Shown piece by piece: positions 1,551 through 25,295 of a DNA stretch of 56,220 nt (position 1 is the first letter of the stretch; each line of letters opens with the position of its first letter). Source of the stretch: Oligoflexales bacterium. GTDB lineage: Bacteria > Bdellovibrionota_B > Oligoflexia > Oligoflexales > Bog-1112. A program made the position numbers and the translations under genes. The notes beneath the pieces are model-generated. The model did no database searches, was not told the DNA's origin, and saw only the letters and a list, made by a program, of their open reading frames with translations. The stretch covers positions 1 to 56,220 of the forward strand of contig JBGCDR010000152.1 of the NCBI GenBank assembly GCA_045105515.1. The letters run 5' to 3'.

Positions 1551-2783
1551 ATGAAAAAATTCAATCGCATATTAATATCGTTATCTCTTATTTTAGCTTC
1601 CTCTAAAGCCTCTGCTACCGATCTTGGTGGCACAATGAATCACTTAAGCAGCAAGAGCAATAGGGATAAAGCTGCTGGTATGAGTCATTCTCATAACGCA
1701 GATGGTTCAAAAAGAAGTAAAGCAGAAGGCTCAGCCATTAGCAGGGTAAACAGAAGCGGAAGCAGAAGCCACTCAAGTGGTGGAGTAAATGCATCTAATA
1801 ACTCCATCCACTATATTCAAAACCATCAAAATATTCATCAGCGCCCAAAGCTCAGTGAACGGGGTAGCTACGCGGAAACCTGTTTTACAGGGGATACACT
1901 CGTAACCGTAAGCAAAGAAAAAAGCACAGAGTTAATTCCTATTAAGGACGTTCAGGTTGGTGATTCTGTAGTTTCTTGTTCGATAGAAGACGGAAGCAAG
2001 CTATGCCATCCAAGGGAAGTCCTAGCAAAGTCAGAAGTACCAATTGAGGACCATCTTTTAGCTATAGGCTTGAAAAAAGGCGAAATAAAAACAACGTTTG
2101 AGCATAAGTTTTATGTGGTTAATGAAGGCTGGGTACCAGCGGAGGACCTACAAATTGGAGATCAATTATTATCTGAAGGTGGCGAAGTAGTAAATATCAA
2201 GAGTATTGAGCAACTAGAAGATTTTGAGGGGTCTACTACGGTCTATGATCTCAAAGTGGATGCTGAAGAGGATCACGACCATAATTACTTTGTCGGCACT
2301 GACAGAGTCCTGGTTCATAACTGTGATATTGCAATAGCTGGTGTAGCTGCAAATCCTGCTGCAGTAGCCCCTGGAGTAATTGCAAGGGGCTGGATGACAA
2401 AGCTAGCTGCTGGGGCCCAATATACAGCTACTGTAGGTAGCGTGGGCCTCACAATGATGAATAAAACCGATGATAATGATGACACGTCTAGAGTGTTTGA
2501 GGAAAATCCTAAACATAGAAAAAATGTAAGCCAAGGAAAGGGAGGTTGTGCGAATCCTGAGCCTACAAACCCTCAAAAAGCCCTAGACAACTCTGTCGAA
2601 ATGGAAGGTAATTCTTCCAGAAGGGTTAGTGTTGATAAAGAAAACGGAGAGTTCTCAGTTTTCGATGAGCACACATCAGGAAAATTTCATGGGCATACAA
2701 GAAGTTGGGATCAACTAAATCAGAGAATGAAAAATGCATTAATAAAATCAGGCAAGGTAACACCAAGGGGCAAAATTAAGTGA
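1551..2783 (+). CDS. Secreted polymorphic toxin: Sec signal peptide, HINT autoprocessing domain, C-terminal BECR-type nuclease (CdiA-CT NC101-like)
   Basis: RBS AGGAG; signal MKKFNRILISLSLILASSKASA; HINT from CFTGDT (1881) to VLVHN|C (2316-2324). C-terminus PTNPQKALDNSV...RRVSVDKENGEFSVFD...FHGHTRSWDQL...NALIKSG.V..RGKIK. Confidence 0.85.
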   Translation: MKKFNRILISLSLILASSKASATDLGGTMNHLSSKSNRDKAAGMSHSHNADGSKRSKAEGSAISRVNRSGSRSHSSGGVNASNNSIHYIQNHQNIHQRPKLSERGSYAETCFTGDTLVTVSKEKSTELIPIKDVQVGDSVVSCSIEDGSKLCHPREVLAKSEVPIEDHLLAIGLKKGEIKTTFEHKFYVVNEGWVPAEDLQIGDQLLSEGGEVVNIKSIEQLEDFEGSTTVYDLKVDAEEDHDHNYFVGTDRVLVHNCDIAIAGVAANPAAVAPGVIARGWMTKLAAGAQYTATVGSVGLTMMNKTDDNDDTSRVFEENPKHRKNVSQGKGGCANPEPTNPQKALDNSVEMEGNSSRRVSVDKENGEFSVFDEHTSGKFHGHTRSWDQLNQRMKNALIKSGKVTPRGKIK

Positions 2784-3121
2784 GCAAGCTTATATATGAA
2801 AATCCAAAGAAGATAACTAAAAAACAAGCTTTGGGATTATTATCTACAGGGGATTCAGACAATGTAAGAAGTGCATTAATTAGTATTTCACTTCATGAGT
2901 CTGATTGGAGATGGGCACAAAATGAATGTCTAAGATTTTTGAACCATGAAGATAAATCGATTGCATCTACAGCTATCATATCTATAGGGCATATTGCTAG
3001 AATCCATGGCTCAATTGACAAGAAGGAAGTTTTTGATGCCTTTGAAGCAATTTCAAACAGGGAAGAATTAAATGAGCAAATAGAAGATACGATTGATGAC
3101 ATAAAAATTTTTGTTAAATAA
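2780..3121 (+). CDS. Cognate immunity protein (helical, HEAT-like)
   Basis: GTGA overlap with the toxin stop; 113 aa with ALISISLHESDWRWAQNECLRFLNHED...AIISIGHIARIHG. Confidence 0.75.
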   Translation: MSKLIYENPKKITKKQALGLLSTGDSDNVRSALISISLHESDWRWAQNECLRFLNHEDKSIASTAIISIGHIARIHGSIDKKEVFDAFEAISNREELNEQIEDTIDDIKIFVK

Positions 3122-3248
3122 TCATAATTCTGTTTTTCAGGGAATCATTGATTATTTGCAAAAAAGCTTTGATATCATCCTAAATGACCAGGAAGATTTT
3201 AAAGAGCCAAGTCAGTCCTTTGCCTAATAATGTATGTAGGATTAGCAA

Positions 3249-3548
3249 ATGATAAAAAATGAAAAGAAAAATAGAAAAGAAACTCTAAGAAAACTTCGCG
3301 AAAAGAAGAAGAGTGATTTAATTGCAACTCTGCCTTTCGCACCAGAAGATGCGAAAAGTTTTTTCGACTTCTTAAATGATAAGCTACCCGAGTTCGGTTG
3401 TAGTCACTCTTTTAAAATAGTCAAGGAGTTCTGTTCTGATAAAAAAATTAATTTCGAAAACATTGAACCTTGGCTCAATAGCAATGGAGCATGGTGCGAT
3501 TGCGAGGTTATTGCAAACGTAGAGCAAGAATACGAGTCATTAATATAA
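3249..3548 (+). CDS. DUF2695 domain protein
   Basis: FDFLNDKL..FGCSHSF...WL..NGAWCDCEVIANV motif; AGGA RBS. Confidence 0.75.
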   Translation: MIKNEKKNRKETLRKLREKKKSDLIATLPFAPEDAKSFFDFLNDKLPEFGCSHSFKIVKEFCSDKKINFENIEPWLNSNGAWCDCEVIANVEQEYESLI

Positions 3549-3774: not shown

Positions 3775-5103
3775 TTACTTCCAAGTCATCACCAGTATTA
3801 GCTCGTCGCCTACGATCATCTCCCACTGATAATATCTCTGAGTGGTAGTGATATCCTTATGACCATGTACCTGGGAGACTTTAAAGAAGTCGTTAAATTC
3901 GAAAGTTTGGATTGTGATATGAAGCCTTCTAAAATCATGAAGACTATAAAGGTTGAAGGGATAGTTGGAGTCAAGATTTGATTGGGACTCAAGAAATTTT
4001 GCAACTTGGTCATAGGTAACTTCGTCATTCTGATATTCCTTCAATTTGACCATCCCAACCAAAAATTTTGCTAACTCTCCAGATGTGCAACAAGCAATAT
4101 AAGGCCCGGTTTTTGGATCATCTGATTCGCCACCTATCGACCTTAAAATAGCTAGATTTGATATCTTAGCCTTTTTAGCAATTTCAACATGCAAGAACAG
4201 CTTTGGTAAATCTGTTTCCTTTATGGACTTAATGAGAGGATTGGTCTCTAGATACTGTTCAATTTGCTTCTTTCCAACCAAGTCCCCTTGGTTGCACAGC
4301 CAGAGCTTCAGAAACCCTAATTCCAAATGCGGCACAAAGAGTTATTACCCATCTTGACCTTCCTCTTAGTAGGGTTGAAATCCAGCTATTAATCTTACTC
4401 CAATCAGGAAGCTTGTCACCAGGAAGTATCTTTTCCTGATTCTTTGAATTCTCAGGCTCATTGAGGATAGTTGGATATTCGGTAAGTACCCCTCTGTAAA
4501 TTAGAAACTTAAGATACCTTCTAAGTGCAGTTCTAGTTGTATTCCTTGAGCGAGCTGTCTTCATCTTAGCTTCAATGAAACGATTGAAATCTGGAATGAG
4601 CCTACTCCATTTCTTGACATCGTTTTCCCTCATTCTGATGGTAAAGAATGGAAAAACATGCTGAGCAAGCAGTGCCAGATATGATTGGACTGTGGATTGC
4701 CGAGCAGTCTTATGACACCATTTAATGAATTCTGCTTGGTGCCTTAGGAAGAAGTCAGGCAAGTAAGCATCAGGTCTTTCTGTGGTCTGATTCACCCTTT
4801 CCTTCCACATGTTGAGTTCATGGGTGATAAAGTCAGAATTCTTCCCGCCAAGCCAAAAGCAGAGCTTCCTAGGAGTTCTGAACTTACCTTCACCGAGAAG
4901 TTTTATGATACATGGACCTGCTTCTTCTGTCCCCTGAGGACAAACCAGACTGAACAGACCACAAGTGGTGGGCCAGGCTGGGTATGCTCATGCCTGAAAT
5001 AGTTCTGTTTCTTGTTATTCCGTCTTGGGTAACTGCCATATCTAAGTAAACCGAATTCAAAATAGGTGGCTTCTTTGATAATTGTTCGGCCAAAGGTTGT
5101 CAA
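3775..5103 (-). pseudogene. Tyrosine recombinase/phage integrase, frameshifted
   Basis: Catalytic R in FGIRVSEALAV (ORF 4259-4810); HDFRR and HGHKDITTTQRYY in ORF 3775-4335. Removing one G from the G4 run (4284-4287) joins them. A probable N-terminus in 4903-5103 needs a second shift near 4905. Confidence 0.8.
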
Positions 5104-5262
5104 ACCTTTGAAAACAGCTCTAGGGATTTGGGAAGAAGAAGAAATAATTATTCATTATTTTAGTATGTTACAAAATTGGTAGATGAATATATCTAACGAT
5201 ATTTCGTTATTTTGCATAATTTTTTACAGGTAATTTCTAATTTTATGCAATGATTTTGAGAG

Positions 5263-5349
5263 TGGTACCAGCTCCCGGACTTGAACCGGGACGCCCTTGC
5301 GAGCATTGGATTTTGAATCCAACGTGTCTACCAATTTCACCAAGCTGGC
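5263..5349 (-). tRNA. tRNA-Leu (CAA)
   Basis: Reverse complement GCCAGCTTGGTGAAATTGGTAGACACG TTGGA TTCAAAA TCCAA ... long variable arm, GGTTCAAGTCC T-loop, ends ACCA; 87 nt. Confidence 0.97.
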
Positions 5350-5675
5350 TCATAAAGAGATAAACTTCTACCTACTTTGAAGGATGCATTTACCTCGGTA
5401 GATATGTGTAAAGCGGACCATTCCAGTTGTCTATAGAAAACTATTTTACCTAGTCCGCGATTAAGGCAAAAGCCTCTAAAAATATGCATAACATACTGTA
5501 ATAACTATATTATAAAAACTTACTCGCCTAGCAAAGCAATCAAGCAACAGTTATTGTTTCCTCCTTGATATAGTACGGATTTTCATAGGAAATTCTTTCC
5601 CAAATACATTTGCCTAAAATCGCCTAAGCTAATTAGTAGAACTAAACATGCAATAAAAATTGAAAGGGGTGTGTT

Positions 5676-7412
5676 ATGCCACTGCCCTCAAATATGGTAT
5701 CTAAGCTTGGTGGCTTTGCTGAATTTATCATATCTCCTAGCTTTGTTTGGATATGGTGCGGATTCATTGGACTTTATGCGCTAAAATGGTTGACCAATCT
5801 TTATTGGAAAAGCTCAAAAATAAAGTCCCATCTCAGAGACGTGCTAAAGGTATTAGCCTCATTTAAAAATACTGGAGAAATGATAGAAAACTTCAATACC
5901 GTGCATGGAAGGTTCATTCAATCTAGTACCCTCACTACACCGTGGCAAGCTTACCAACATTCACTATTAAAAATATTTGCCGAACAAAACAAAGAAAGTG
6001 GAAATGTCTCGAAGGCAGCACAATACAAAGCAATTAGAGCAACCCGAGACAGCTCTGAGTTCTTTTGCCCACAAACAATCATCTACCCAAGCATCGACCA
6101 AAAACTTTATGCAGCAATTCCTAATCACTTAAGCGGCATGGGCATTTTAGGAACTTTTTGCGGCCTTTCATGTGGCATTTACCTAGCTAGGCATGGCCTT
6201 GCTGGAGGAGCAATGCATGAAATACAGCACGGTCTTGCTCAATTACTAAGTGGAGCATCATTAGCATTTTGGACCTCTATCGTCGGTATTTTTACATCAA
6301 TTGTATTTTCTCGCATCGAACGTAATCGAATGGCAGGAATGGTGGATCTAATAGCTAAGCTCAATCATACCTTTGGCGGGCTAATCCAAACGATAAGCAT
6401 AGAGCAATTAACAAATAAGCAGCTAAGCCAAAACCATCAGCAAAATATCAATCTCGAAAAAATTGTCCAAAGTTTAAAAATAATATATCAAGATCGAGCG
6501 GATGCTAATGAAAAGGTATTAAAACAAATTGCTAAGGAGTTCCACGACACCCTTACCGAATCCTCTGGCAAAGAAATAAAGTATATTGCGACAGCATTCC
6601 AAAAAATTCACGAAGGTCTAAGGGAAACAAAAGATGCTCTGAATTCATCTGGAAAGTATCTTTTGGATTCGGTAGAAGCAAGCACTAAAATGTTTAAGAA
6701 AAATCTACACGAACTCTCTCACCAGTTTCAATCTAACTTTCATTTAACTAATGAGAGCGTGCAACAAACCTTTAAGGATTCTGCAAAAGATATACACATA
6801 TCTCTGCAGAAAAGTGCGTTTGAAATGAGTGATGCAATCAGGAAACCAGCTCACGAACTCGGACAATCCTTTAAGATCCTACAGCAGCAGATTCAAATAA
6901 CTGGGGAAAATATCTCAAAAACTAGTGAGCAAAATGCTGAGAATACTAAAAAAGTTATGGAATCCCACGCAAAACTAAGTGAGTTTATCAACCCACTGAT
7001 CCATGCAGCTCATGCCATATCAAAAGCTTGTAATGAGGCTCAAGCCTCACTTAATATGTCTTCAAGTGCTGCAATAAAAATATCAGAAGCCGTAAAGCAC
7101 ATGGATCAAATCAATAGGCAAACAAAAAACTCTTGGGAGGCCTATTGCAAACGTTTTGAAGGAGTTGATCAAAATCTCAATCACATATTTCAACAAACCA
7201 ACACGAGCCTTCACTCTTATTCAGAAAAAGTTAAGGGTTTCACTTCAGAATTAGACAAACACATGAGTAAAGGTGTAGTAACCCTTGCTGGAGCGGTTGG
7301 AGATCTCAATCAAGCTATCACAAGCTTACCAGAAGCAATTAAATCAGTACGGAAGAATGCAATCAATCTAAATGAAAAAGAAAAAATCACCTATCCAGAT
7401 ACGCGGGTTTAG
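5676..7412 (+). CDS. zorA: Zorya ZorA-like protein (MotA/ExbB-like TM domain plus long cytoplasmic helical tail)
   Basis: N-terminal TM, periplasmic domain, AIPNHLSGMGILGTFCGL and LLSGASLAFWTSIVGI helices, then a ~360-aa coiled-coil-like tail; followed by a MotB-like gene. Confidence 0.8.
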   Translation: MPLPSNMVSKLGGFAEFIISPSFVWIWCGFIGLYALKWLTNLYWKSSKIKSHLRDVLKVLASFKNTGEMIENFNTVHGRFIQSSTLTTPWQAYQHSLLKIFAEQNKESGNVSKAAQYKAIRATRDSSEFFCPQTIIYPSIDQKLYAAIPNHLSGMGILGTFCGLSCGIYLARHGLAGGAMHEIQHGLAQLLSGASLAFWTSIVGIFTSIVFSRIERNRMAGMVDLIAKLNHTFGGLIQTISIEQLTNKQLSQNHQQNINLEKIVQSLKIIYQDRADANEKVLKQIAKEFHDTLTESSGKEIKYIATAFQKIHEGLRETKDALNSSGKYLLDSVEASTKMFKKNLHELSHQFQSNFHLTNESVQQTFKDSAKDIHISLQKSAFEMSDAIRKPAHELGQSFKILQQQIQITGENISKTSEQNAENTKKVMESHAKLSEFINPLIHAAHAISKACNEAQASLNMSSSAAIKISEAVKHMDQINRQTKNSWEAYCKRFEGVDQNLNHIFQQTNTSLHSYSEKVKGFTSELDKHMSKGVVTLAGAVGDLNQAITSLPEAIKSVRKNAINLNEKEKITYPDTRV

Positions 7413-7426
7413 TTTCGAGGATCATT

Positions 7427-8275
7427 ATGAATAAAAAATCCTATGATAGCGAGAATTCAAACGAAGCCCAACAAGGTTTCTGGATATCTGTAAGTGATCT
7501 CATGGCTGGACTAATCTTCATTTTTCTAATTATCCTAACTGTCTTTTCAATTCAGTTTAAAAAAGAACAAAATAGTTTTATTAAAGCCAAAGCCGAACTC
7601 CAGTCTCCCGCAAAAACAAGGCATCATATTCTTTTAGATTTAAAGAAAATACTCAGTAAAAATGGACTTGAGGTAGAGACTTACCCCGAAGAAGGGATAC
7701 TGCGTTTAACCGAACAAACCTTAAGTTTCCCAGCTGCAAAAGCCTTTCCCAATGCCGACAAACTTGGAAATCTCGGAAAAATTGCAAAAGCTTTGACCAT
7801 GGTTCTCCCCTGCCATAGTGATTATCATCGACGAGTGCTAAGCCCTGAGCAAAATTTCGATCACCCTGAGTGGTGTCAACCAATAGAACTAGAATCAAGC
7901 TATAAATGTAAAACCAAATTCAAGGGCTCAATTGAAACAGTCATGATTGAAGGTCACACAGATGCAATGGCTGTTAAAGCAGGAGCAGGTTACCGAGACA
8001 ATCTAGCTCTATCAGCGGCAAGAGCTACAACCGTTCTGCGGCTTCTCAAATTGTGCGACAATCGTTTGGGTGACCTATTTAATCAAAAAGATCAACCGAT
8101 CATAGGAGCCAGTGGCTACTCAGACCTCAGGCCACTCATCAAGCATGATCCTAGAAATCATAGAAATAGAAGAATAGATGTCCGACTTGTGATGGATTTA
8201 CCTGATAATGCTCTGGAACCTGACGATTCCTTGACAAAAAGAAAAACGATCAGTCCTCCAGATCGTCAGCTTTAG
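7427..8275 (+). CDS. zorB: Zorya ZorB-like OmpA/MotB family protein
   Basis: FWISVSDLMAGLIFIFLIIL (conserved TM Asp), then IEGHTD, NLALSAARA and NRRIDVR OmpA-C motifs. Confidence 0.85.
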   Translation: MNKKSYDSENSNEAQQGFWISVSDLMAGLIFIFLIILTVFSIQFKKEQNSFIKAKAELQSPAKTRHHILLDLKKILSKNGLEVETYPEEGILRLTEQTLSFPAAKAFPNADKLGNLGKIAKALTMVLPCHSDYHRRVLSPEQNFDHPEWCQPIELESSYKCKTKFKGSIETVMIEGHTDAMAVKAGAGYRDNLALSAARATTVLRLLKLCDNRLGDLFNQKDQPIIGASGYSDLRPLIKHDPRNHRNRRIDVRLVMDLPDNALEPDDSLTKRKTISPPDRQL

Positions 8276-8910
8276 TGGTAGAAAAGGAACTTAGATCTAT
8301 GTCTCTTGCAAATCAGAGGTTCTTTCTTAAAGAAAGCGTTGAAAAGCCAAATACCCTGCACCTTGATGTTCCTGCACCACCAATAAACCTTTTCAATACC
8401 GTTAAAGATCTAAAGAGTATCTGTGCTGGATACCTCGGCACTGAGCGTACCATTGCTAGTTTTTTTAAACTTTTGCATATGTGCGGGCTCGATAAGCACA
8501 GCATATACCGAGAGCGATTCTGGAAGGCTTACTTAAAAGCTGGCTATATCAACCAAGCATGGCTCATATTAGCACCGACAGCCGAGATTTTAGCTCTTAA
8601 TAAACTGGGTATCAAAAACTACCAATTTGGTAAGCTGCATAAGTGTCGCCGTATTGATGAAAAACATGTGGTTCTCTTAATGCGCCTAGACAACCTTCTT
8701 ATTGCAGAATGGAGCCACATCGGAAAATGTCGGTTTTGGTTTCACAATAATTTAAACGTGCCTGGTCTATTCAAACGTTCATACCGGAGAGAACAACTGA
8801 TTGATTTCGCAGATTATATACAGCAACATTACTTTTCCTCAAAAGGGCTCTGGCAAAAGGATGCCTCTGCTTGGATGAGTGCAAAAGCTCATATCCCTAC
8901 GATTATTTAA
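8275..8910 (+). CDS. zorC: Short ZorC-like EH-signature domain protein
   Basis: GTG start overlaps the zorB stop (TAGTG). RERFWKAY...AWLIL...LLMRLDNLLIAEWSHIGKCRFW...QH....GLWQ matches the EH_Signature pattern; only 211 aa. Confidence 0.7.
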   Translation: MVEKELRSMSLANQRFFLKESVEKPNTLHLDVPAPPINLFNTVKDLKSICAGYLGTERTIASFFKLLHMCGLDKHSIYRERFWKAYLKAGYINQAWLILAPTAEILALNKLGIKNYQFGKLHKCRRIDEKHVVLLMRLDNLLIAEWSHIGKCRFWFHNNLNVPGLFKRSYRREQLIDFADYIQQHYFSSKGLWQKDASAWMSAKAHIPTII

Positions 8911-8926: not shown

Positions 8927-9316
8927 TCAAGCCTTAGCCTGAAGACACTCTCCTATTTCTTCTTTAAAATTTTCGACAAATGTCGGATTATTAAACTGCA
9001 GCGGTTTTAAAACATACGACTTTGCCCCTAATGAAATTGCTTTATTGAGTTGGTCAGTCTGCTTAATAGCAGTGATAACCAATATCCTTGCATCTTCTGT
9101 AAGCGCAAAGATCTCTTCTAATGCCTGCAGACCACCCATGTTGGGCATAGTCAAGTCAAGGGTCATTAAATCAGGTTTATGCTTTTCAAAGATGTTCACT
9201 GCATCACTGCCATTCGAACCTTCAGCCACGACAGTGAATTTCATAGTCTCCTCAAAAAACTTTTTCAACTGAAGCCGAATTAGTAAAGCATCATCAACTA
9301 CTGCTACTGTTTTCAC
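8927..9316 (-). CDS. Single-domain CheY-like response regulator
   Basis: VVDD...LMTLDLTMPNMGG...VITA...YVLKP receiver motifs. Confidence 0.9.
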   Translation of the reverse strand: MKTVAVVDDALLIRLQLKKFFEETMKFTVVAEGSNGSDAVNIFEKHKPDLMTLDLTMPNMGGLQALEEIFALTEDARILVITAIKQTDQLNKAISLGAKSYVLKPLQFNNPTFVENFKEEIGECLQAKA

Positions 9317-24365: not shown

Positions 24366-25295
24366 TTAAAGGCTAGCATTAAGTAATTGTAGGGTGAGGT
24401 TACTCTGTACATTGCTCTGAGCAAGAAGAGCTGTGGAGGCCTGTGACCTAATCTTAGCTTGAACCATATTTGTCACCTCCTCAGCATAGTTAGTATCAGT
24501 AATTTTCGAGCGCGCTGCAGAAATATTCTCTTGATACACATCAATATAGTCTAAAGCTCGATTTAAACGCGACTGTAATCCACCAAAAACAGATCTTTGG
24601 GTAGCAAGGCCTGCGATCGCTTGATCATACACAGTCGCATAGATTTCGTCATCTTCTGGTAAGAGCATTTCCTCAACCTCTTCAAGCTCAATACCTTCTT
24701 CATCATTTGAATCTTGCAGCAATTCGCTTGCACTATTAAGGCCTAAGGTTTGGGTTGAGGTATCGACCGTGCTAAATCCTTCAAATTTAATAGTATTGAT
24801 GTCATCATCAGTTTCTTCACCTCTGAAAGGATCCCCTACCCTGAAAATTAACGTTTCAGGTGCTTTCTCGGAAGAACCATTTAAAACAGGGATACCATTA
24901 AACTCTGTCGTCTGAGTGATTCTATTGATCTCATCATGAAGGGCTTCATATTCGATAAATAGATACCTTCTTTCTTGATCGCTTACTGTAGTACTAGCTG
25001 CTGCAATATTTACTTCCTTCATACGAGTTATCATATTATTTATTTCCGCCATCGAAGATTCGGCAGTTTGTAATAGTGACATCGCATCGTTAATGTTTCT
25101 CTTAGAAGCGGTCAGCGCTCTTATTCTAAATTCCATTTTTTCCGAAATTGCTCGTTCGGCAGGTCTTGGATCTCCAGGAACAAAAACTGTGCCTGAAGCT
25201 AAGCGTGATAAAGAGTTTGTTTCCTCTTTTTTAGCTTTCGATAAATAGCGTCTTAAGCGGGATGATAATGTCTTATCACTAATATTGAATCCCAT
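24366..25295 (-). CDS. Divergent flagellin
   Basis: SLSRLASG, RNINDAMSLLQTAE, TEFNG.PVL, RSVFGGLQSRL, ENISAARSKITDTNYAEE. Confidence 0.85.
   Translation of the reverse strand: MGFNISDKTLSSRLRRYLSKAKKEETNSLSRLASGTVFVPGDPRPAERAISEKMEFRIRALTASKRNINDAMSLLQTAESSMAEINNMITRMKEVNIAAASTTVSDQERRYLFIEYEALHDEINRITQTTEFNGIPVLNGSSEKAPETLIFRVGDPFRGEETDDDINTIKFEGFSTVDTSTQTLGLNSASELLQDSNDEEGIELEEVEEMLLPEDDEIYATVYDQAIAGLATQRSVFGGLQSRLNRALDYIDVYQENISAARSKITDTNYAEEVTNMVQAKIRSQASTALLAQSNVQSNLTLQLLNASL

Follow-up and report, generated by a model that had tools for sequence, protein, structure and literature searches.

A conserved three-gene variant of type I Zorya with a half-size ZorC in Oligoflexales and its possible link to motility

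We analyzed a 56,220-nucleotide (nt) stretch of DNA from an uncultured Oligoflexales bacterium (the window, which is contig C152 of genome G000; assembly of 6.3 Mb, completeness 90.9%, contamination 4.8%). It carries on the plus strand the operon zorA (5676..7412; 578 amino acids [aa]), zorB (7427..8275; 282 aa), and a half-size zorC (8275..8910; 211 aa from a GTG codon). ZorA has a membrane motor domain and a helical tail with a conserved tip (approximately aa 481-560), ZorB has a transmembrane Asp24 and a peptidoglycan-binding domain, and ZorC consists of an EH module. This operon is a real, conserved variant of type I Zorya, undescribed in the literature searched. Our leading interpretation, which we hold tentatively, is that a conserved, nuclease-free, three-gene descendant of type I Zorya was domesticated into the motility programme as a sensor. 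A first-pass annotation made from the sequence had described a tightly linked operon, and the layout reads as it stated: 14 nt separate zorA from zorB, and zorB and zorC overlap as TAG/GTG (TAGTG).

A half-size ZorC and its relatives

The first-pass annotation had assigned open reading frame (ORF) 8275-8910 to EH_Signature, and the Pfam match bears this out (E 1.8e-13, above the cut-off). The PADLOC ZorC1 model (E 5.3e-40) matched only over positions 310-456 of 462, and canonical ZorC proteins of ~470 aa are, as had been claimed, about twice this length. In a word-index search with candidates restricted to 116-370 aa, all matches (14/14) were 142-230 aa long, with 45-86% identity. A profile search unrestricted by length returned 1188 proteins at E <= 0.001; the best 9 of the 150 listed were 142-230 aa, and the first full-length ZorC (~470 aa) appeared at rank 15 among these 150. 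In a FastTree phylogeny of 164 EH modules, 27 short proteins (139-230 aa) fell on one side of a single branch (support 98). This group had been defined by a QQHYF-type motif, so the tree was repeated after cutting the C-terminal part that carries it (support 99). The QQHYF surface motif is invariant in short ZorCs and absent from full-length ZorC, and a Trp that is invariant in 111/111 full-length rows has been lost from the short proteins. Short hits outside the 27-member group look like fragments of full-length proteins.

The ABC-only architecture with short ZorC is conserved in relatives, where six such operons were read. In all six, the match to the full-length profile begins at position 304-307 of 465. 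This suggests a single ancestral truncation of ZorC; the N-terminal half (profile positions 1-303 of 465) had no match anywhere in G000. A frameshifted or fragmentary zorC is rejected on the 14/14 short homologues, the short-first profile ranking, and the shared truncation point. The earlier view that ZorC is natively short therefore stands, on conservation rather than on translational coupling to zorB: the start is probably ATG 8299 (203 aa), the Met at which the sister species and the closest homologues start, and a purine-rich, Shine-Dalgarno-like stretch lies ahead of it.

To compare substitution between G000 and its sister species in genus g1 (G001), we give nonsynonymous (pN) and synonymous (pS) divergence in place of dN/dS, since synonymous sites are saturated. 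pN was 0.075, 0.076, and 0.077 for zorA, zorB, and zorC, respectively, against pS values of 0.80, 0.86, and 0.89; gyrB gave 0.052 and 0.78 (G000 carries two gyrB copies, and copy pairing with G001 was used). Selection on zorA, zorB, and zorC is purifying. The closest homologues are short and under purifying selection; full-length ZorC with ZorD, and relaxed selection here, would have been expected of the decayed type I system that the first-pass annotation had considered. The gyrB copies of G000 (C286:16759 and C74:60198) are divergent from each other, and the one on C286 falls outside the grouping with the sister species, which suggests contamination or transfer.

Residues of the EH module are conserved across the short family: R79 and W83 in 27/27 proteins, E145 in 25/27, H185 in 26/27, and also W193. 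By alignment and spacing, R79, W83, E145, and H185 are the counterparts of R335, W339, E400, and H443 in E. coli; this matching to PDB 8r68 rests on sequence alignment, and which residues stand for D332 and W458 is uncertain. The AlphaFold2 model of the 203-aa protein was confident (predicted local distance difference test score 88.3), and its only significant fold match was E. coli ZorC (8r68; E 4.8e-5, template modeling score 0.47). A PDB sequence search with the short-ZorC alignment returned nothing significant, whereas the full-length alignment did reach 8r68, and a search of the ESM Atlas gave no usable match. The ZorC of the window is basic (isoelectric point 9.7).

The ZorAB motor and the search for an effector

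The motor genes matched the PADLOC profiles ZorA1 (E 1e-32) and ZorB1 (E 3.5e-60), while every score against the NCBIfam Zor models was under its curated cut-off. The best solved relatives were PDB 8qyy/8qyd for ZorA (8qyy, E 1.2e-22) and 8vvn for ZorB. ZorA P149, T160, and S201 align with E. coli P136, T147, and S184, and R108 is also retained; ZorB retains D24, H177, N192, L195, R199, and four invariant cysteines, with Asp as the counterpart of Tyr151. Motor residues, the ZorB transmembrane Asp, and the wall-binding domain are all present, in agreement with the first-pass statement that the stator motifs are intact, and the ZorAB core probably still works like that of type I. The calcium site differs. 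Ligands E86 and E89 of E. coli ZorA are replaced by A92 and H95, and the E89 column holds Glu in 0/22 clade rows (a single ragged row has Asp) versus 35/41 other rows. By alignment, Glu89 is lost across the clade. In E. coli Zorya, E86A/E89A abolishes defence (PMC11946911).

The last 120 aa of ZorA match the PADLOC ZorA1 models in 6/6 ZorC-bearing loci (E 3e-12 to 6e-10). The tail tip also matches in 3/3 other type I-like loci and in 0/5 ZorC-less loci, where the losses are possibly not independent events. No part of ZorA is better conserved than the tip (aa 481-560), which is 93.8% identical between G000 and G001, above gyrB. Its co-retention with ZorC suggests that the tip is maintained for ZorC. 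ZorC itself is accessory; some lineages retain the motor without it. Two such loci are further reduced. In G009 (L032:7022-8876), ZorA is shortened to 334 aa and ZorB has lost its transmembrane Asp with the wall-binding domain intact, apparently an ion-dead motor remnant. In G021 (L047:318-2156), a 612-aa ZorA is followed directly by an unrelated 812-aa gene, and zorB was not found in the genome (87% complete, 1130 contigs).

We compared the module with type I references from E. coli NCTC9026 (PDB 8qyd, 8r68) and Shewanella ANA-3 (ZorAB, PDB 8vvn; PMC11946911, PMC11890865). Like type I ZorABCD, the window has the gene order A-B-C, best profiles ZorA1, ZorB1, and ZorC1, and the ion-path, wall-binding, and EH residues. 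It differs in having no ZorD, a ZorC reduced to the C-terminal EH module without the helices of the N terminus or the globular domain of the C terminus, a ZorA without Glu89, a fixed chromosomal position amid housekeeping genes, and a promoter motif in common with flagellar motor genes. For defence, E. coli type I Zorya depends on all of its genes, on the termini of ZorC, and on the calcium site (PMC11946911). Judged by its sequence, the window module falls outside type I in three respects: ZorD, the length of ZorC, and the calcium site.

Canonical type I systems occur in two genomes of the same order (G034 and G076) and on a viral contig (L154). They share PADLOC subfamily PDLC00622 with the window (31% EH identity); unlike the window, they encode a full-length ~470-aa ZorC followed by an SNF2 ZorD of 970-1130 aa, and they lie outside the reduced clade. 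The ZorD of G034 (L012:6657-9755) ends in an HNH domain, not in the Mrr-like nuclease named in the PADLOC models.

A three-gene zorABC set has also been described, as a truncated type I Zorya, in Vibrio cholerae VPI-2 (vc1764-vc1762; 10.1101/2024.04.05.588314; PMC12409362). It resembles the window in having three genes, no reported zorD, and no demonstrated activity, and it differs, by its description, in lying on a mobile defence island. The portions of these sources consulted describe neither a conserved half-size ZorC clade nor a link to motility. A half-size ZorC conserved as here, the clade itself, and a Zorya belonging to a motility regulon were likewise not found in the full-text literature searched, which covers a minority of subscription papers. 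Supplementary Zorya locus tables of PMC11946911, PMC11890865, and PMC8565338 may list such operons.

Searches for an effector covered the operon and five genomes that are 59-94% complete. Downstream of zorC, there was no same-strand gene in the operon in G000, G003, G010, or L051; in G001, the contig stops within a convergent gene 290 nt past zorC, and the only ORFs in G012 are short ones to which Pfam gave no match. The ZorD model gave 30 matches in G000, G001, G003, G010, and G012, all to the SNF2 core only and starting at position >= 440. The best reached 285 bits, against 864 bits with near-full coverage for the true ZorD of G034, and the same model also matched in 9/14 control genomes. 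Searched by tblastn, G000 gave no match to either the first 450 aa or the HNH end of the G034 ZorD. ZorE, represented by one PADLOC model (PDLC00645), had no match in G000, G001, G003, or G012 and a partial one within a 2137-aa frame in G010. ZorG (DUF2894) matched in 0/5 genomes and 1/14 controls; ZorF (DUF3348) likewise matched in 0/5, a result to be read alongside the fact that it matched in no control genome either. An unlinked ZorD, ZorE (one model), or ZorG found no support in these searches.

Locus, inheritance, and a palindrome in common with flagellar promoters

The short-ZorC profile matched in 7/95 genomes of the order, 5 with short proteins and 2 with full-length ZorC and ZorD; all 5 belong to the window's family (16 genomes), and a sixth short-zorC operon lies on a metagenome contig (L051). 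ZorB and ZorA profiles located five further loci without zorC, in G006, G009, G017, G024 (where the contig end truncates zorA), and G021 (with zorA only). A tRNA-Leu(CAA) gene (5263..5349, minus strand, divergent from zorA in the window) is a conserved landmark of the locus. It is upstream in 7/11 loci, immediately so in five and with a gene in between in G006 and G017; it is missing beside the G003 and G009 loci, and G021 and G024 are not judgeable. G006 and G017, which belong to different families, have by eye the same convergent downstream GDSL-motif gene. The neighbours of the locus are housekeeping genes, and the GC content at third codon positions of the zor genes matches that of neighbouring genes in G000 and G012. 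A ZorA tree groups these loci (22 rows) and joins G010 with G000, G001, G003, and L051 (95); GyrB, compared without G003, G006, and G024, joins G010 with G000 and G001 (96). The locus was likely inherited vertically, with losses.

The window operon is closed on both sides, as the first-pass annotation had noted, by the tRNA side and by a convergent single-domain response regulator (8927..9316, minus strand), whose receiver-domain gene ends 16 nt past zorC. No space is left for zorD. The regulator bounds the operon and is not part of the module; the same neighbour occurs only in G000 and, judged by its 3' end, G001. The zor genes lie on the 5' side of the tRNA; integrase-like remnants and toxin genes lie on the opposite, 3' side. 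We reject membership in a tRNA-anchored mobile element on this position and because no duplicate of the tRNA 3' end turned up, save for a 27-nt internal match on C65. Carriage by phage was also rejected: of 120 candidate stretches in viral contigs, a single one proved to be a relative, itself a canonical ABCD system.

Other features of the window lie apart from the operon. On the tRNA 3' side, positions 1551-3548 encode a pretoxin-HINT protein (410 aa), an overlapping 113-aa ORF, and a DUF2695 gene, resembling a polymorphic toxin-immunity set. At 3775-4810, two overlapping minus-strand ORFs have tyrosine-recombinase-like motifs by eye and no Pfam match; they probably represent a disrupted integrase at the 3' end of the tRNA. 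A flagellin-domain gene lies at 24873-25283, 16 kb downstream.

Aligning five zorA upstream regions revealed a palindrome-like block, in the window a putative operator TAGGAAA-N3-TTTCCCA (5586..5602, plus strand). A putative -10 element, TAAGCT (5625..5630, plus strand), lies 22 nt 3' of it. Between ~5593 and the start codon, the identity of G000 to G001 is 87-93%, as against 13-30% at 5503-5562. The perfect palindrome core occurs 17 times in G000, 7 times in intergenic DNA, and 3 of the 6 intergenic sites other than that of zorA precede fliM, fliL, and motB. We ranked 3560 upstream regions with a matrix built only from the zorA sites of G000, G001, G010, and G012. fliM came 2nd, motB1 4th (in a tie with the gene divergent from it), motB2 5th, a flagellin gene 9th, fliL 21st, and a third motA 108th; with 30 column-shuffled matrices, fliM, motB1, and motB2 never did better than rank 21. 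Conversely, a matrix from six flagellar sites, which were picked after the first hits were known, placed zorA at rank 8, the second-best nontraining site.

The palindrome persists in G001 at fliM, fliL, both motB operons, and zorA (corresponding flagellar sites on C24, C79, C51, and C425), and in G000 it lies at fliM (C45:24945), fliL (C108:20031), and two tandem-motB operons (C178:29579 and C311:395). In both species, both motB operons have TATAAT ~21-22 nt after the palindrome, close to the 22-nt spacing of TAAGCT at zorA; in G010, G012, and the untrained G021, TAnnnT stands at 23 nt (background ~6%). This geometry resembles a class II activator site. A sigma-70 and terminator scan of 5200-5700 gave no sites. 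At fliL, the palindrome by eye lies 14 nt ahead of a sigma-54-type promoter. The palindrome-like site at the G021 zorA promoter came from outside the training set. We found no literature description of a palindromic operator at fliM/fliL/motB in this genus. In most other families, fliM is directly preceded by coding sequence and has no promoter of its own.

The window module and the flagellar stator MotAB have a homologous 5:2 ion motor core, and the motB operons of the genus carry the same palindrome and spacing. They differ in that the window ZorB has no MotB_plug match, while the MotB proteins of G000 have the plug, and in that ZorA has a long tail. G000 has its own MotAB sets. Stator genes are numerous, with tandem motB-motB pairs at C178:26875-29512, C311:482-2045, and C74:7417-8903 of G000 and 8 MotB-plug matches in G001. 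Within the family, flagellar genes occur in 7/7 module carriers versus 4/9 noncarriers (Fisher p 0.034; kin are not independent); with FliM only, p was 0.06, and flagellin was checked in four family members. We infer co-regulation of zorABC with flagellar motor genes, mostly limited to genus g1.

Sensor, defence system, or remnant

Among the explanations raised by the first-pass annotation, a domesticated ion-driven motor gained most, because the locus is fixed, its neighbours are housekeeping genes, and its promoter carries the palindrome of flagellar motor genes; the role itself is predicted from sequence. In the sensor model that we favour, a transcription factor would turn on zorABC with motB and fliM via the observed shared palindrome, its binding and the resulting co-expression being presumptive. 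ZorA5B2 would form, take hold of peptidoglycan upon compression or deformation of the envelope, and be rotated by proton flux, as its key residues and the behaviour of E. coli Zorya suggest. The tail tip, retained together with ZorC, would dock the short protein. In the weakest step, the basic EH module would bind nucleic acid but leave it uncut, coupling envelope mechanics in swimming cells to the nucleoid or a signalling output. The module would thus act as a wall-anchored, proton-driven sensor and not as a DNA-destroying system. A more specific form is possible but doubtful, in which the Zorya motor became a housekeeping device: a flagellum-independent, wall-anchored proton motor would be switched on with the flagellar stators, and its tail would link envelope contact to the chromosome via a minimal EH DNA clamp.

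Several observations weigh against domestication into the motility programme. Firm evidence for the motif link is confined to genus g1: the palindrome was not found at fliM, fliL, or motB of G010, G012, and G006 or at motB of G003, and it is missing at zorA of G003, L051, G006, G009, and G017, with weaker zorA sites in G010 and G012. A weak site (11.7 bits) also precedes the canonical zorABCD of G034, where FliM and flagellin were not found. The zorA-only matrix includes the window's own site and two sites chosen by eye, about half of the top-25 promoters stand before genes that are unknown or unrelated to motility, and the other 7 flagellin-domain genes fall outside the top 25. Because FliM is near-universal in the order (78/95 genomes) and most of these genomes are without the module, the association with flagellar genes is weak. 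The concatenated ZorAB tree is mostly unresolved and the SH-aLRT (Shimodaira-Hasegawa-like approximate likelihood ratio test) support of the ZorA clade is just 80, so vertical descent rests mainly on synteny. The window ZorC has no C-terminal globular domain, which PMC11946911 reports as required for DNA binding in E. coli, and the intact EH residues, which E. coli defence requires, fit defence equally well.

A defensive role is the alternative that we take most seriously, although we think it less probable than domestication. The module would be a minimal anti-phage subtype timed to the swimming state, with the motor sensing phage at the envelope and the short ZorC trapping incoming DNA; host nucleases or membrane depolarisation would finish the DNA, and the promoter link would reflect the risk from flagellum-binding phages. 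The module has kept its motor and peptidoglycan-binding residues along with the tail tip and the EH network, and the presence of the module in 7/16 of the family is a patchy distribution typical for defence genes. Type III Zorya protects using two DUF proteins instead of ZorC/D/E (PMC8565338), and MotAB-dependent protection against a flagellotropic phage is reported (PMC12643550). PMC11946911 reports, on the other side, that loss of any one gene abolishes E. coli type I defence, and here the calcium site is lost, conservation is at housekeeping level, the locus is fixed outside defence islands, and 4 relatives keep ZorAB without any effector. The idea that the EH domain is the only effector is itself weakened, because relatives keep ZorAB having lost ZorC.

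We regard as unlikely a split system in which the effector is encoded elsewhere in a form not recognisable as ZorD/E/F/G, such as an ordinary SNF2 ATPase or an unannotated nuclease. The first-pass proposal of an effector in trans found no support in its recognisable form, with no ZorD, ZorE, or ZorG found in G000 (one model in the case of ZorE). SNF2-core proteins are present in 5/5 genomes, the assemblies are 59-94% complete, and the gained QQHYF motif and lost Trp could form a new ZorC interface. Set against this, the SNF2 matches do not include the N-terminal half of ZorD and come from a model that also matches in 9/14 controls, and a true ZorD would have had to escape five independent assemblies. 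Slow decay of a type I system without present function, with ZorD the earliest loss, followed by half of ZorC and later by the rest of ZorC, the tail, and ZorB, is very improbable. The reduction series fits it, running from ABC through AB with shorter tails (334-439 aa) and the ZorB of G009 without Asp to ZorA alone in G021, as do the long terminal branches of G006 and G009. The open frames and a pN of ~0.08 over saturated synonymous divergence in all three genes speak against decay, together with EH residues that are invariant across proteins merely 30-50% identical and a promoter footprint conserved next to diverged spacer DNA. For the window, the pN and pS values largely refute it; it may still apply to G009 and G021.

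Pipelines that require ZorD would likely miss these loci. The loci amount to a natural dissection of Zorya, in which selection keeps the motor, the tail tip, and, of ZorC, just the EH module, marking the tip and the EH module as a candidate interacting pair; this bears on how the ZorA tail communicates with effectors, and the confidently modelled 203-aa ZorC is a means to study the EH module in isolation. If the promoter link is real co-regulation, a Zorya motor would be tied to motility, either as a non-defence machine or as swimming-timed defence. Domestication, if true, would be an exaptation from defence to motility, the opposite of the usual stator-to-defence story, and the living intermediates ABCD, ABC with half-size ZorC, AB, and A would mark the path.

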